This document shows, one piece after another, positions 606 to 57,962 of a stretch of 57,962 bases of DNA. The stretch spans positions 1 to 57,962 of the forward strand of contig CALQZN010000001.1 in NCBI GenBank assembly GCA_943349675.1, read 5' to 3'. The notes below the pieces were generated by a model. The model had not been told where the DNA came from, did not search any database, and worked only from the letters and a program-made list of their open reading frames with translations. This stretch comes from Candidatus Nomurabacteria bacterium. GTDB taxonomy: Bacteria; Patescibacteriota; Minisyncoccia; Phycocordibacterales; SBAW01. Numbering within the stretch: the stretch's first letter is position 1; each line of letters opens with the position of its first letter. Made by a program: the position numbers and the translations under genes.

Positions 606-719
606 TAAGGTCCAAAAGTAAATATGTAGTAACAACAAATTATTGCGATTCTCAAGTCTTTGCCCGCCGCAGTCCCATCCTTTTTACAGGACGAAGGCGG
701 GCTCTCACTCACAAGAGGA

Positions 720-4005
<3,286 letters not shown>

Positions 4006-4216
4006 CCTTTCTCTTGTGAGAGAGAAAAGGAGACTTAAGAACCGCAATAATTTGTTGTTATATATTTTTCTACAGTTCTAAAATCGCTTTCACGATTTTA
4101 GATTTACCTTGCCCATCTCCACTAAGCTGAAAAGACCCGTATGGGAAATTTCTCAATGGGATGGAATTTGTGTTGTCAAAGAAGCTCGCACTCTTCAGAT
4201 TTTTTCCAACAAAAAA

Positions 4217-6192: not shown

Positions 6193-6233
6193 TTTTTTGT
6201 ATCAAGGTTTAAAGTTGCTTACTTAAGCTCAAC

Positions 6234-6300
6234 CTTGTCACACATAATTTCTTGCTAGAAATTTGCGCGACCCCGCCTCGGCACGACTGCCTCCGGCCGA
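6234..6300 (-). repeat. structured repeat family B, copy B1
   Basis: The copy contains GTCACACAT, the hairpin AATTTCT-tgct-AGAAATT, the core GCGCGACCCCGCCTCGG, the hairpin GGCA-cgac-TGCC, and the tail CTCCGGCC. Confidence 0.8.
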
Positions 6301-6308
6301 AAAGTTGC

Positions 6309-6737
6309 TTACTTAAGCTCAACTTTTCCTCCTGCAGCTTCAACTGCTTTTTTGAGTGCTTCTGCATCCTCTTTCTTCATTCCTTCTTTAAGGACTGATG
6401 GGACTGCGTCAACAAGGTCTTTTGCTTCTTTAAGTCCAAGTGAAAGCGCGTCTTTAACGGCTTTAATAACCTGCACCTTTGCGGCACCCGCGTCAGTTAG
6501 GTGTGCGTTAAAAGAAGACTTCTCTTCTGCTGCGTCCCCTGCTGCTGCTGGGCCCGCTACGGCAACTGCTGCAGCCGAGACACCCCAATGGCCCTCGAGG
6601 GTTTTAACCAACTCGTGGAGCTCGAGTACCGACATTTTTTCAACTGCACTTACGATATCTTTAAACTTTGCAGGGACCTCTACCTTACTTTCTGCTGCAG
6701 GCTCAGCTGCAACCGGAGCTTCTGTTTCGTCTGCCAT
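6309..6737 (-). CDS. rplL: 50S ribosomal protein L7/L12
   Basis: The C-terminal domain ...[56 protein letters not shown] is typical of L7/L12. The start is taken at MADETE; the N-terminus carries an extension of about 25 aa. Confidence 0.9.
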
Positions 6738-10630: not shown

Positions 10631-10657
10631 GAACAAACTCTACCACCCCTACCCTGC

Positions 10658-10721
10658 AAAAAGTTATCCACAGTTTTGCTTACAAAGGACTGACCTTCGT
10701 GGGTTCAGGTGTGGATAAGTG
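10658..10721. repeat. palindromic repeat family A, copy A1 (two perfect DnaA-box 9-mers)
   Basis: TTATCCACA lies at 10664-10672 and its complement TGTGGATAA at 10710-10718. The inner hairpin is CTTACAAAGG-actga-CCTTCGTGGG. Confidence 0.85.
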
Positions 10722-12737: not shown

Positions 12738-12776
12738 ACCTCCATCCTACCACTTTTGGAAAGGCGTGCTTTGTGT

Positions 12777-12840
12777 AAAAAGTTATCCACAGTTCTGTCT
12801 ACGAAGGTCAGTCCTTTGTAAGCCTGGGTGTGGATAAGTC
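12777..12840. repeat. palindromic repeat family A, copy A2 (central hairpin inverted relative to A1)
   Basis: TTATCCACA lies at 12783-12791 and TGTGGATAA at 12829-12837. The inner hairpin is CTACGAAGG-tcagt-CCTTTGTAAG. Confidence 0.85.
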
Positions 12841-35782: not shown

Positions 35783-35805
35783 CAAACTTTGATTATATCG
35801 CTTTG

Positions 35806-35865
35806 AGTTATCCACACCCGAGCTTACAAAGGTCAGTCCTTTGTAAGTAAAACTGTGGATAACTT
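35806..35865. repeat. palindromic repeat family A, copy A3 (reverse orientation of A1)
   Basis: TTATCCACA lies at 35808-35816 and TGTGGATAA at 35854-35862. The inner hairpin CTTACAAAGG-tcagt-CCTTTGTAAG is perfect. Confidence 0.85.
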
Positions 35866-51489: not shown

Positions 51490-52005
51490 TTATTGGCGAT
51501 TGTGTAGTTTTTCTACATCCTGCATAAGTTTTTGCAACCCACTTCGAATCTCGTCCAGTGTTTTCTCTTGCCCTGCCTGAGAAGCCTCTTCTGCCTTCTC
51601 GTCTTCAGTCATCTCTTCCACGTCTTCTTGAATCTCGTCGACGTCTTCTTGGATTTCATCAACGTCCTCCTGAATCTCGTCCACATCTTCTTGGATCTCG
51701 TCGATATCTTCTTGAATCTCTTCGATGTCTTGCTCAACATTTTCGATAGTCCGTGTTGTGTAGTTGATGGTCATCTGTATAAAAATCGACAAGTAAATTG
51801 CTTCCAAAGAAACAATGGTGGTCAAAATCAAAAGCATCCGTTCAAATGGCAAAACTCCAAATTGCACCAACAAAAAACTACCCAAAAACAAAAACGTGTG
51901 TAGGACGACAGACTCAAGTGAGCCGACCGCACGTGTAACCCCAAGAGCCAGTTGCTCTATTTGTTCTTTTGGCTCTTTTCGTTTTTCTTTACCTTTTTTA
52001 GCCAT
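51490..52005 (-). CDS. DUF1003-like membrane protein with an acidic heptad-repeat tail
   Basis: It has two TM helices with the motif TIVSLEAIYLSIFIQ. Repeats (D/E)EIQEDV x5-6 follow. Confidence 0.55.
   Translation of the reverse strand: MAKKGKEKRKEPKEQIEQLALGVTRAVGSLESVVLHTFLFLGSFLLVQFGVLPFERMLLILTTIVSLEAIYLSIFIQMTINYTTRTIENVEQDIEEIQEDIDEIQEDVDEIQEDVDEIQEDVDEIQEDVEEMTEDEKAEEASQAGQEKTLDEIRSGLQKLMQDVEKLHNRQ
51618..51732 (-). repeat. in-frame 21-nt tandem repeat (~5.5 units)
   Basis: The unit gacgtcttcttg(a/g)at(c/t)tcgtc encodes DEIQEDV units. Confidence 0.8.
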
Positions 52006-53722: not shown

Positions 53723-53741
53723 TGGGTGACCGATGGGACTC
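53723..53741 (-). repeat. duplicated 3' end of tRNA-His (19 bp, identical to 53915-53933)
   Basis: tgggtgaccgatgggactc occurs at both positions. Confidence 0.9.
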
Positions 53742-53916
53742 CTTTTTGCCCGTCGGCTCGAATCGTTGCGCATGGCTCACGATATACTCGCCTCCTCCTT
53801 AAAAAGCCTCGGGCCCTCGCTGTTTTGCTACGCAAGCTCGGGTCCCGTTCGATTCCCAAGCAACGCTCGCGTTGCAAAACTACCCAACCTTGCGGCTGGG
53901 TAGTTTTGTCACCGTG

Positions 53917-53989
53917 GGTGACCGATGGGACTCGAACCCACAACAACTGGTACCACAAACCAGGGCTCTACCATTGAGCTACGGCCACC
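53917..53989 (-). tRNA. tRNA-His (GTG) with encoded G-1 and C73
   Basis: It folds as a cloverleaf by hand: G-1, acceptor GTGGCCG/CGGTCAC, anticodon arm CTGGT-TTGTGGT-ACCAG, T arm GTGGG-TTCGAGT-CCCAT. Confidence 0.85.
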
Positions 53990-55026: not shown

Positions 55027-55054
55027 GACAATTATTATAGTTTATTTTGCTTCT

Positions 55055-55118
55055 GGTCACAGATATTTTTCTGCTGAAAAATTCCGCGACCCCGCCTCGA
55101 CGCCGTCGCGTCTGCGGC
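55055..55118 (-). repeat. structured repeat family B, copy B3
   Basis: The copy contains GGTCACAGAT, the hairpin ATTTTTC-tgct-GAAAAAT, the core CCGCGACCCCGCCTCGA, the hairpin GACGC-cgtc-GCGTC, and the tail CTGCGGCT. Confidence 0.8.
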
Positions 55119-55144
55119 TCACAAAATGTGTCCCACACATTTTG

Positions 55145-55226
55145 TGCCCAGGACTGGACTTGAACCAGCATGTCTTGCGACGTTACCACCTCAAGGTAAT
55201 GGGTCTACCAATTTCCCCACCTGGGC
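55145..55226 (-). tRNA. tRNA-Leu (GAG)
   Basis: The acceptor is GCCCAGG/CCTGGGC and the anticodon loop is TTGAGGT. It has a long variable arm and the T arm GGTTCAAGTCC. CCA is not encoded. Confidence 0.85.
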
Positions 55227-56617: not shown

Positions 56618-56665
56618 GGTCACAAGTATTTTTCCTGACGGAAAAATCTCGCGACCCCGCCTCGC
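56618..56665 (-). repeat. structured repeat family B, copy B4 (short form)
   Basis: The copy contains GGTCACAAGT, the hairpin ATTTTTCC-tgac-GGAAAAAT, and the core TCGCGACCCCGCCTCGC. It has no second hairpin. Confidence 0.8.
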
Positions 56666-56681
56666 AGTTTATAGAGGAATC

Positions 56682-56760
56682 GGTCACAGGTTCCAGCCTG
56701 CTGGCTGGCCCCGCGACCCCGCCTCACTCGCCTACGCTCGCTCCGGCCTTCGATTCCTCG
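56682..56760 (-). repeat. structured repeat family B, copy B5 (stem fully replaced)
   Basis: The copy contains GGTCACAGGT, the hairpin CCAGCC-tgct-GGCTGG, the core CCGCGACCCCGCCTCAC, then ...CTCCGGCC and TTCGATTCC. Confidence 0.8.
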
Positions 56761-57864: not shown

Positions 57865-57962
57865 ATACTGTTTAGAGGAAATAGAAGCAAATAGAGTATC
57901 GACGGAGTCTTTCGCAGCGCGGCGGCGCGAGAACGAGCAAATTTTTAGCAAAAAATTATGCG

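Follow-up and report, generated by a model that had tools for sequence, protein, structure and literature searches.

Family B, a small structured mobile element lying between duplicated gene 3' ends in Patescibacteria and Elusimicrobia, may find its sites by base pairing

The window studied here is a stretch of 57,962 nucleotides from Candidatus Nomurabacteria bacterium (assembly GCA_943349675.1, contig CALQZN010000001.1, positions 1 to 57,962), and it contains five copies of a structured repeat, Family B, at the 3' ends of the ribosomal protein genes rplL and rplK and of the genes for tRNA-Leu and tRNA-Arg. Family B is a widespread small (60-130 nt) mobile element of Patescibacteria (the Candidate Phyla Radiation, CPR) and Elusimicrobia that apparently has not been described before. 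Mobility itself is observed, in the form of presence and absence at one site, copy-number polymorphism and turnover between strains, and the element is well supported as a structured RNA or DNA motif. The mechanism, unlike the mobility, is one that we infer: we favour, with moderate confidence, a non-autonomous homing-type element that is targeted by base pairing, probably passes through an RNA intermediate and depends on one or more enzymes encoded elsewhere.

A search of the whole window with a covariance model (R1, filters off) yielded four full copies and one half copy, all on the plus strand. The full copies (B1, B2, B3 and B5) score 76-81 bits and the half copy (B4) 29.9 bits; beyond these and a diverged candidate at 57905-57962, nothing in the window scores above 9 bits. 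The near-invariant core GCGACCCCGCCTC is found at 6267, 48023 (with two mismatches), 55086, 56651 and 56713, each time on the plus strand, and five core matches were reached in none of 100 dinucleotide shuffles of the window. A repeat finder clustered the copies independently (families D3 and D4). The first-pass annotation of this DNA had placed five copies at these coordinates, in a single orientation and all after minus-strand genes, as the core scan, the R1 model and the gene calls of rplL, rplK, tRNA-Leu and tRNA-Arg bear out. Its B4 (56618-56665) comprises the long-hairpin half of the element only. The stems and loops that it listed can all be read where it put them, with three corrections of detail: B3 ends in CTGCGGCT and not in CTCCGGCC, B5 has no clean second hairpin (hp2), and B2 starts with CCCACACA in place of GGTCACA, a change compensated by its core GCGGGCCC, which pairs with the altered start.

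In order to find relatives, a collection with one genome per species was scanned for the pattern GGTCACA-N(15-35)-CGCGACCCCGCCTC, and the related loci were taken as 8-kb pieces. At least 120 loci match in genomes of Patescibacteria and Elusimicrobia, so that the further copies in related CPR genomes proposed by the first-pass annotation as a check do exist; the counts of copies (n=126) and loci (n=120) given below refer to the matches listed. The hosts include Paceibacteria/Parcubacteria, Saccharibacteria, Microgenomates, Berkelbacteria, WWE3 and others, besides nine Elusimicrobia records with a subfamily of their own, with a long hp2, and a few bins otherwise labelled (taxon labels are those of the records, and all related sequences are metagenome bins). 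The R1 model finds additional copies inside the same 8-kb pieces. The core is 52-131 nt long with a mode of 63, and an identical 44-nt segment, made of the long hairpin P3 and the junction, is shared by five or more species-level genomes. A search of 2.9 million viral contigs gave one match, in a tandem array of the Elusimicrobia type, and BLAST searches of the INPHARED phage and PLSDB plasmid collections gave no Family B match. The motif had been taken to be none with a name, and this agrees with our searches: at gathering scores Rfam 15, with its ribozyme, HEARO, IS605-orfB, tRNA-like and SRP families, reported rRNA and tRNA only over the whole window, at E values up to 10 around B1 and B3-B5 it overlapped no core, its weak matches lying on neighbouring terminators and tRNAs, and a literature search (full text for the core sequence, and topical) returned nothing relevant to Family B.

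The anatomy of the insertions follows one formula, which on the sense strand reads U - D - spacer - X' - core - D - Z. Here U is the gene body, D the gene 3' end, which is present twice, and Z the native downstream DNA, and the spacer, of 0 to ~80 nt, is often a hairpin. The copies had been described as following their genes; they are indeed downstream, but they sit within a duplicated gene 3' end. At B1 the direct repeat is perfect over 23 bp (6211-6233 and 6301-6323, AAAGTTGCTTACTTAAGCTCAAC) and comprises the last four rplL codons, the stop and 8 nt; at B2 a 13-bp repeat from the rplK end stands on either side (47983-47995 and 48071-48083). The bases adjoining the core on its gene-proximal side are the reverse complement of the start of the repeat. 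This segment, X', is 8-13 nt long and complementary to the target across the insertion point, over 2-4 nt upstream and the first ~10 nt of D. In the tRNA-linked copies X' is complementary to tRNA positions 54-66, loop bases included, and hence spans the insertion point with 3 bases upstream (GAA:TTC) and 10 downstream; in a subclass GA stands opposite G57-A58 as a tandem G-A mismatch. The features in the window are as follows.

6237..6298, minus strand: core of B1, in minus-strand order GGCCGGAG, hp2, GAGGCGGGGUCGCG, the long hairpin P3 and UGUGAC.
6224-6310: covariance-model match of B1, 81.3 bits.
6299..6307, minus strand: X' of B1, CAACUUUUC, which overlaps repeat copy 1 and is complementary to GAAAAGUUG, where the duplicated rplL end starts, as read from the sequence.
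6301..6323, minus strand: direct repeat copy 1 of B1, the functional rplL end (codons V E L K, stop and 8 nt more), from the perfect 23-bp repeat and the rplL translation.
6211..6233, minus strand: direct repeat copy 2 of B1, the displaced rplL end, followed by the operon terminator at 6202-6161.
47992..48054, minus strand: core of B2, the variant GGGCCCGCG...UGUGUGGG with compensated pairs; model match 47980-48066, 78.0 bits.
48055..48062, minus strand: X' of B2, CGUCCACC, complementary to GGUGGACG in the last rplK codons; 9-nt inverted match 47986-47994 / 48055-48063.
48071..48083, minus strand: direct repeat copy 1 of B2, the functional rplK end, 17/18 identical once extended through the stop codon.
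47983..47995, minus strand: direct repeat copy 2 of B2, the original rplK end, joined directly to the gene body in the empty-site contig.
55055..55119, minus strand: core of B3, downstream of tRNA-Leu(GAG); model match 55043-55131, 76.3 bits; minus-strand fold z = -7.7.
55120..55146, minus strand: spacer hairpin of B3, CACAAAAUGUGU-GGG-ACACAUUUUGUG, whose 3' arm stands in place of X' and whose 5' arm opens with the last tRNA-Leu bases.
56618..56665, minus strand: B4, truncated to P3 and the GAGGCGGGG junction; 29.9 bits over model positions 38-75.
56682..56748, minus strand: core of B5, with a GC-rich P3 and an hp2 of the type GAGCG-UAG-GCGAG; model match 56670-56760, 79.8 bits.
56749..56760, minus strand: X' of B5, CGAGGAAUCGAA, complementary to tRNA-Arg(TCT) in its T-loop and the 3' strand of its T-stem (UUCGAUUCCUCG).
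56674..56681, minus strand: what is left at B5 of the duplicated 3' part of tRNA-Arg (GAUUCCUC, starting with tRNA position 57), fused to the rest of B4.
57905..57962, plus strand: diverged family member (..ACGGAG..GCGCGGCGGCGC-GAG..GAGCAAAUUUUUAGCAAAAAAUUAUGCG), cut by the window end; match 57911-57961, 17.9 bits, E = 0.012.

The left boundary of the duplication is constant in tRNA genes and its right boundary is not. Among the tRNA-linked copies, all 37 whose repeat reaches 10 nt or more have it begin at tRNA position 57, which places the insertion at 56|57, and in 21 of the 37 it finishes at the tRNA end (0 or +1). In protein genes the insertion point lies a few codons ahead of the stop, and the target sequences are TTC|GA in tRNAs, GAA|AAGTTG in rplL and GGG|TGGACG in rplK. 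The length of the duplication ranges from 5 to ~101 nt (23 for B1, 13-17 for B2, 17-21 in most tRNA cases, 56 in L012 and ~101 in L085), the repeat of L085 taking in a terminator and a further hairpin, with X' directly after the first copy; the direct repeats stand 50-140 nt apart. A second class, to which B3 belongs with others, has the hairpin and core at the very end of the tRNA, the stem running 2-4 bp into it and the repeat short or absent. Since D is duplicated, or supplied by the donor copy, the host gene remains intact and the element rides in its transcript upstream of the terminator. In rplL and rplK the stop codon is found in the loop of the X:X' hairpin.

X' seems to be preserved or replenished as copy 2 decays, and follows the functional gene more closely than the second gene end. 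Of 53 T-loop copies, 19 have an X' that pairs better with the functional tRNA, two have one that pairs better with copy 2 and in 32 the two are equal, a comparison mildly biased because, among candidate core starts, the most tRNA-complementary one was kept. Where copy 2 has decayed to an identity of 6.1/10, the pairing of X' is still 8.9/10. Two other origins of this arrangement were discarded: the upstream tRNA is complete, which is at odds with an intron in the T-loop, and CCA present in copy 2 and absent from the gene, as expected if copy 2 came from mature tRNA, is seen in a few cases only (L045, L067 and L038). Most second copies continue into unrelated sequence and the long repeats include terminators, so that an origin from mature tRNA receives no support.

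Comparison of strains provides the evidence of movement. At rplK one contig (L131) with an identical protein has an empty site, reading ...ATGGGGGTGGACGTGAAATAAACTCAAAACTATATA, and the X' segment of B2 is missing from it; in the window and in two other contigs (L132 and L133) the site is filled, and after GTGAA these continue GTAA-GAAA-CGTCCACC-core-GGTGGACGTGAAATAAACTC. At rplL all ten strain contigs with an identical protein are filled, yet they differ from each other: L130 contains a tandem array of the unit, and the downstream copy of the gene end exists as three alleles. In one of these (L122, L124 and L129) the same V-E-L-K-stop is encoded with other codons (TTG AAA TAA), so that copy 2 of B1 has different synonymous codons in other strains (GTTGAGTTGAAATAA); this allele continues into its own downstream sequence and therefore looks original, the functional rplL end seeming to have arrived with the unit. 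A search of JGI metagenomes for an empty rplL site gave no match. Tandem arrays occur also in L019, L096 and L061. The spacer between tRNA-Arg and tRNA-Val varies between strains: L140 has the complete form of the truncated B4, with a different P3 in the first element, L143 has an extra element immediately after tRNA-Arg, and L141 has at the B4 site a B3-like unit together with the spacer hairpin and the 3' flank of B3. In the latter contig we also noted an insert of ~550 nt (265-830) with a 145-aa open reading frame (ORF), directly after tRNA-Arg, where the window (~56800) has a spacer hairpin and B5. Of the functions considered in the first-pass annotation, that of a mobile-element substrate is consequently the best fit to the empty site, the arrays, the flanking duplications and the strain differences.

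The fold of the element is a single three-way junction, and not the two independent hairpins read on the plus strand in the earlier annotation. The strand that folds is the minus strand, which is the sense strand of rplL, rplK, tRNA-Leu and tRNA-Arg. For the five copies the z values of the RNA fold are -5.4, -5.1, -7.7, -4.9 and -3.6 on this strand and -3.0, -2.6, -5.2, -2.0 and -2.1 on the plus strand; the minus strand folds better because UGUGAC:GUCGCG contains two G-U pairs, which become C-A mismatches on the plus strand. The pairing of GTCACA(N)(N) with (N)(N)GCGAC had been missed, and it turns hairpin 1 into a 15-bp helix whose two G-U pairs form on the minus strand only. Likewise, GCC within CCCGCCTC pairs with GGC within CTCCGGCC. 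The minus-strand layout, from 5' to 3', is thus X' - (A/G)GCC-GGA - hp2 - GA-GGC - GGG - GUCGCGnn - stem-loop - nnUGUGAC-C. P1 is an outer helix built by the flanks: their best helix averages 5.39 bp, compared with 3.48 +/- 0.12 bp when partners are shuffled, and a single register dominates. P2 consists of the GCC/GGC helix (P2a), a small purine-rich internal loop of the GA/GA type and a variable hairpin. P3, a hairpin of 15 bp, has a one-base bulge and, in its base GUCG/UGAC, a conserved G-U pair.

Compensatory replacement of the stems, proposed by the first-pass annotation together with a significance analysis of the covariation, is real and lies far above the controls. In an alignment of 51 distinct copies made with MAFFT (A1), standard pairs occupy 85.9% of the cells against 68.2 +/- 0.7% in shuffles, both partners vary in 25 of the 32 pairs and the score for covariation reaches 0.477, compared with 0.157; none of 500 shuffles reached the observed value of any of these measures, and when the partners were slid by 1-3 columns pairing fell to 38-43%. 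In 114 model-aligned copies (A2), an alignment biased toward the model, 90.3% is paired against 67.0%. Copies found without the search pattern contribute here as well. In L021 and L004 P2a changes from GCC/GGC to GGC/GCC, which is also found in the strain contig L141, and a further L004 copy has UAC/GUA. The second G-U pair can turn into G-C (the L130 variant GCGCGCA...CGCGUGAC), and the P3 base GUCG/UGAC with the first G-U pair is retained in the pattern-independent copies and in the strain variants. The diverged candidate at 57905-57962 resembles the diverged copy at 1110-1191 of L004, whose P2a is UAC/GUA instead of GCC/GGC.

With respect to their genomic context, 82 of the 126 copies follow a tRNA gene of the same sense at a distance of 46-332 nt, with 31 anticodons represented, and none follow one of the opposite sense. 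The protein-gene targets are rplL and rplK in the window and, in two cases each, rpsI and a topA-like C-terminus. The terminators of B1 and B2 come only after the element and the second gene-end copy, and hence the element belongs to the host transcript. Two copies (L014 and L033) are tied to the anticodon region of tRNA-Ser: in L014 (120-360) and in L033 the element is upstream of tRNA-Ser(GGA), between a diverged 5' tRNA fragment and an anticodon-loop fragment, and the sequence UUGGAAAG of the anticodon loop is complementary to its X' CUUUUCAA. Sites in tRNA other than the T-loop are therefore used as well. When ORFs of at least 90 aa within 3 kb of the 126 copies were clustered, no recurrent protein family beyond housekeeping ones emerged; Pfam searches of 19 window ORFs gave no reverse transcriptase, transposase or integrase, the window copies having housekeeping neighbours. 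In L032, where the repeat is 1 kb distant, nothing recognisable was seen.

We propose that X' would serve as a base-pairing guide that selects the site, and that the element would spread in a homing-like manner, the unit D-spacer-X'-core being copied from a filled locus into an empty or an already filled one. The intermediate would most likely be RNA, namely the read-through host transcript; a reverse transcriptase may copy it with a nick at the site as primer, homology would resolve the far end, and the enzyme or enzymes would be supplied in trans. The 3' tail of such an RNA, copy 2 of D, would anneal to the nicked antisense strand in the way of a primer-binding site. Four points favour RNA: the conservation of G-U and G-A features, an orientation strictly shared with transcription, the location in transcripts and the variable distal boundary of the duplication. 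Such a variable boundary is typical of target-primed reverse transcription (TPRT). The duplications have the form that SINE-like or target-primed copying from a defined first nick would leave, with the left end fixed at 56|57 and the right end at 5 to ~101 nt. In the rplL alleles the functional copy is of the donor type and the distal copy of the target type, which fits nick-primed copying at the U/D boundary, or the integration of a small circle carrying the unit D-spacer-X'-core. A filled site keeps an intact target, which would account for the tandem arrays and for distal copies that can be far older than X'. The near universality of the T-loop would let a single lineage reach many tRNA species, and fits the copies whose X' matches only the loop-proximal part of the site.

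Among known systems, the retrohoming and TPRT elements (group II introns, SINE/LINE elements, the Mauriceville retroplasmid with its tRNA-hybrid cDNAs and diversity-generating retroelements) come close in that the element pairs with both sides of the site, target duplications vary in length, donor flanks are co-converted, the target is regenerated so that insertion can be repeated, and a structured 3' end lies beside the priming site. Family B differs from them in having no group II domains, GUGYG/AY ends, poly(A), internal promoter or nearby reverse transcriptase gene, and as far as the sequence tells it is not spliced from the host RNA. The sources searched contain no record of a bacterial SINE-like element of this kind. 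A group II or other self-splicing intron was rejected, as no splicing is needed for the host tRNAs and ORFs to be intact, the element has a length of 60-130 nt and Rfam gives no intron match.

Several observations weigh against this proposal. The empty site in L131 is the sole one found and it lies at the end of the contig, 15 nt past the gene, although a contig end there is as expected from a polymorphic bubble. The invariance of GGTCACA and CGCGACCCCGCCTC across the listed loci follows from the search pattern, which fixed both. One copy (L002) is antisense inside a 5S rRNA copy, and in some copies (e.g. L036, L115 and L001) X' is poorly matched to its site. No reverse transcriptase, transposase, integrase or nuclease gene recurs beside the copies, the largest neighbour family being present at 11 of the 120 loci listed. 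Tyrosine integrases, too, classically leave direct repeats that reach from the T-loop to the end of the tRNA. Moreover, the proposal gives no account of how a lineage gains a new X' for a new kind of target, and from the sequence RNA and single-stranded DNA cannot be told apart.

A bolder version of the same proposal, which we regard as tentative and rather unlikely, is that Family B is a protein-less RNA-guided retro-homing element, a natural counterpart of the prime-editing guide RNA (pegRNA). The 5' guide X' of the transcript would pair with the sense strand across the insertion point, the ~65-nt scaffold would be bound by a trans-acting nickase and reverse transcriptase, and the 3' tail would anneal to the nicked antisense strand and prime the copying of scaffold and guide into the target, with the near-universal T-loop acting as a seed for hopping among tRNA species. 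In a variant, the three-way junction itself might be catalytic, a new class of ribozyme that cuts or joins at the site specified by the guide. The guide-plus-scaffold RNAs (the IS110 bridge or seek RNA, the omega RNA of IscB/TnpB and the engineered pegRNA) share the 5' target-complementary segment beside a conserved scaffold, and the 3' tail (in Family B copy 2 of D) complementary to the opposite DNA strand like a primer-binding site. In contrast to them, the Family B scaffold is far smaller (~65 nt) and without Rfam match, the guide has 8-13 nt only, no cognate protein gene is adjacent, and guiding is deduced from the sequence. The known self-cleaving ribozymes (hammerhead, twister, pistol, hatchet and those like hepatitis delta virus) were discarded, as Rfam gave no match to them even at E values up to 10, and inspection of the alignment showed that the junction strands GGCCGGAG / GAGGCGGG / 0-1 nt misfit the CUGANGA / GAAA / UH core of the hammerhead.

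The main rival, which we consider unlikely, is that the element acts as a folded single-stranded DNA substrate for recombination or transposition, a DNA enzyme acting in trans and inserting a small single-stranded circle or strand. In one version the X':target helix would mimic the double-stranded target, the part that integron attC sites and the attP of CTX phage play for tyrosine recombinases; in another, bases at the foot of a subterminal hairpin would read the target, as in IS200/IS605 with their HUH transposase. Integron attC sites and IS200/IS605 ends indeed resemble Family B in stems conserved in structure and not in sequence, in strand specificity and in hairpin-foot bases that pair with the target. 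The strict strand specificity and the hairpin-rich ends of Family B, the pairing of the core-adjoining 2-4 nt of X' with the bases just upstream of the insertion point, the tandem arrays and the excision-like empty sites would all be accounted for, and integration of D-spacer-X'-core at the U/D boundary would yield the observed order with copy 1 derived from the donor. What speaks against a DNA substrate is that no tnpA, integrase (integron integrase included) or Xer-like gene is near any listed copy, that IS200/IS605 elements cause no duplication whereas 5 to ~101 nt are duplicated here, and that conserved G-U pairs and GA/GA tandem mismatches are typical of RNA helices. Family B also differs from attC sites and IS200/IS605 ends in its three-way junction, whose junction sequence is invariant. 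Furthermore, every tRNA-linked copy follows the direction of tRNA transcription, and the T-loop, the rplL end and the rplK end have no common sequence that a site-specific recombinase could read. An IS200/IS605-derived element of the palindrome-associated type (PATE) was rejected likewise: it has the hairpins, but copies of the T-loop class regularly show duplications (37/37 from position 57), and the targets differ where a fixed tetra- or pentanucleotide would be expected.

A host cis-acting RNA, that is, a module of the 3' untranslated region (3'-UTR) or the tRNA trailer acting in stability, 3'-end processing or termination and spread by occasional duplication or recombination, appears improbable. 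Its functional feature would be the pairing with the gene end, by which an X:X' hairpin encloses the stop codon or the 3' half of the tRNA. The presence/absence polymorphism in one population with otherwise identical rplK is difficult to reconcile with such a role, as are the tandem arrays of up to several units, the truncated and chimeric copies, the perfect long target duplications and the unrelated host genes, with 31 tRNA species used among the listed matches; for a regulatory module the second gene-end copy would also be superfluous. On the other side, it would explain the sense direction throughout and the position inside transcription units between gene end and terminator, the junction nucleotides kept across phyla and the covarying helices, an X' that remains complementary to the functional gene copy as copy 2 decays, and the rplL and rplK stop codons held in the X:X' loop. 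A part of this reading may persist as a side effect of a mobile element. A stable 3' structure on tRNA precursors and on ribosomal-protein mRNAs is a plausible consequence for the host, and the 3'-UTR stabiliser or processing element suggested in the first-pass annotation is possible in that sense, although by itself it fails to explain the presence/absence polymorphism.

More doubtful still is that the copies are integrase scars, miniature remnants or cis-mobilisable derivatives of tRNA-targeting prophages or integrative elements whose attP arm survives as the core. The direct repeat from crossover to tRNA 3' end that such a remnant should show is present (37/37 start at position 57 and 21/37 end at the tRNA end), mostly with 17-21 nt, and repeats of this kind are reportedly classified by Williams (2002) as the footprint of integrases crossing over in the T-loop. 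Integrative elements with T-loop tyrosine integrases also seem to bring the functional gene end with the incoming unit, as rplL copy 1 suggests here, and insert in tandem at the same site. Yet neither an integrase gene within 3 kb of the 120 loci listed nor a larger element between the repeats was found; the unit has ~100 nt, one core serves 31 tRNA species and protein genes, and the site seems to be set by base pairing and not by a core sequence recognised by a protein, the protein-gene and tRNA-end targets being unrelated in sequence. The single match among the viral contigs and the absence of matches in the phage and plasmid collections, the RNA-type covariation with G-U pairs on a single strand, an X' that is the complement and not a copy of the T-loop, and the native downstream DNA contained in the 56- and ~101-nt repeats also speak against scars. 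The window holds an insert that could be cited for the integrase reading, an unrelated one of ~174 nt after tRNA-His with the same duplication from position 57 to the end. The last 18 nt of this tRNA (GAGTCCCATCGGTCACCC, minus strand) are repeated 174 nt downstream (53724-53741 and 53916-53933), and the insert (53742-53915) follows the position-57-to-end logic of Family B with an unrelated cargo, which contains TTGGGAATCGAA, antisense to the T-arm of another tRNA. It was rejected as a member of the family, with no model match, a fold z of -1.2 and an occurrence confined to contigs of the window species.

The remaining candidates can be dismissed briefly. The small inverted-repeat transposons known as MITEs (such as Correia, ERIC and RUP) and repetitive extragenic palindromes (REP and their mosaic form, BIME) are, like Family B, short, multi-copy and without protein gene, lie mostly at gene 3' ends and in transcripts, can fold and vary in copy number with the strain. 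Family B differs from them in the lack of terminal inverted repeats and of a fixed-length target duplication, in its three-way junction with RNA-type covariation in place of a simple palindrome, in the segment complementary to its own target that every copy bears, and in going inside gene ends, which are duplicated while the gene remains intact. A classical DDE-derived MITE is at variance with the ends, GGTCACA... against ...CTCCGGCC, whose reverse complement GGCCGGAG matches 4/7 bases only, and with duplications of 5 to ~101 nt in place of a short fixed one; a REP/BIME unit, a 20-40-nt imperfect palindrome with a GTAG-type head and a REP-associated tyrosine transposase (RAYT), is at variance with the branched 52-131-nt fold and with the lack of a recurrent neighbour protein within 3 kb of the matches listed. 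A tRNA-like or transfer-messenger RNA (tmRNA) reading of TTCGATTCC, to the right of the core, was set aside because this sequence is the reverse complement of the 3' half of the neighbouring tRNA T-arm, loop included; ARAGORN found no additional tRNA or tmRNA. Family B, which resembles MITEs, tRNA-targeting integrative elements, retrohoming elements and guide-plus-scaffold RNAs all together, is best placed among the non-autonomous mobile elements, and there is a real chance that it is something more unusual.

Some further observations concern the surroundings of the copies. In 30 of the 126 copies listed (e.g. L046, L074, L085, L095 and L118) a hairpin of variable stem with the conserved top AA-CUGC-UU stands between the tRNA end and X'. 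It has 86 further occurrences elsewhere in the fetched loci, and its presence inside the duplicated native sequence of L085 indicates that it may be a lineage-typical tRNA trailer or terminator hairpin and not a part of the element; a kissing interaction of this spacer hairpin with the P3 loop AGCAG was rejected, as the two do not co-occur consistently. The 5S copy interrupted in L002 (960-1110) is a second one, adjoined by an intact 5S gene, and helix II of 5S naturally has GGTCACAC, the same heptamer as the end of the element. In the window, the 3' end of B3 (GTGACC) and AATAAT 18 nt on have a sigma-70-like promoter score (55031-55060, minus strand) upstream of a TerC/DUF475 gene, for which B3 might thus provide the -35 box, judging by the consensus match only.

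Other features of the window are separate from Family B. A second repeat family of ~66 nt (D2) has three intergenic copies (10655-10720, 12774-12839 and 35799-35864) with inverted arms AGTTATCCACA / TGTGGATAACT, carrying the DnaA-box consensus TTATCCACA, around a covarying centre of ~40 nt. The 23S rRNA gene (716-4009, minus strand) gives a match of 3,294 nt against a model of 2,925 nt, which leaves ~370 nt for one or more insertions; rRNA genes of CPR bacteria commonly contain intervening sequences. A minus-strand ORF (51490-52005) contains five to seven tandem 21-nt repeats of seven codons at 51600-51746 (repeat family D1).

The genomes of CPR bacteria and Elusimicrobia are small and contain few recognised mobile elements, and Family B, present in at least 120 species-level genomes and beside a large share of their tRNA genes, is nevertheless absent from Rfam and from the papers searched. 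At the minimum it provides a structured motif for the annotation of CPR genomes, and it explains tRNA 3'-end fragments, tandem arrays and contig breaks at such loci in metagenome assemblies. The stretch complementary to its site that each copy carries beside a conserved scaffold makes Family B a candidate for a base-pair-guided insertion system with a very small RNA, which would be of practical interest for genome engineering. For its hosts, it shows a way in which a parasite can live harmlessly in essential genes, by inserting at their last bases and leaving a working gene end behind.

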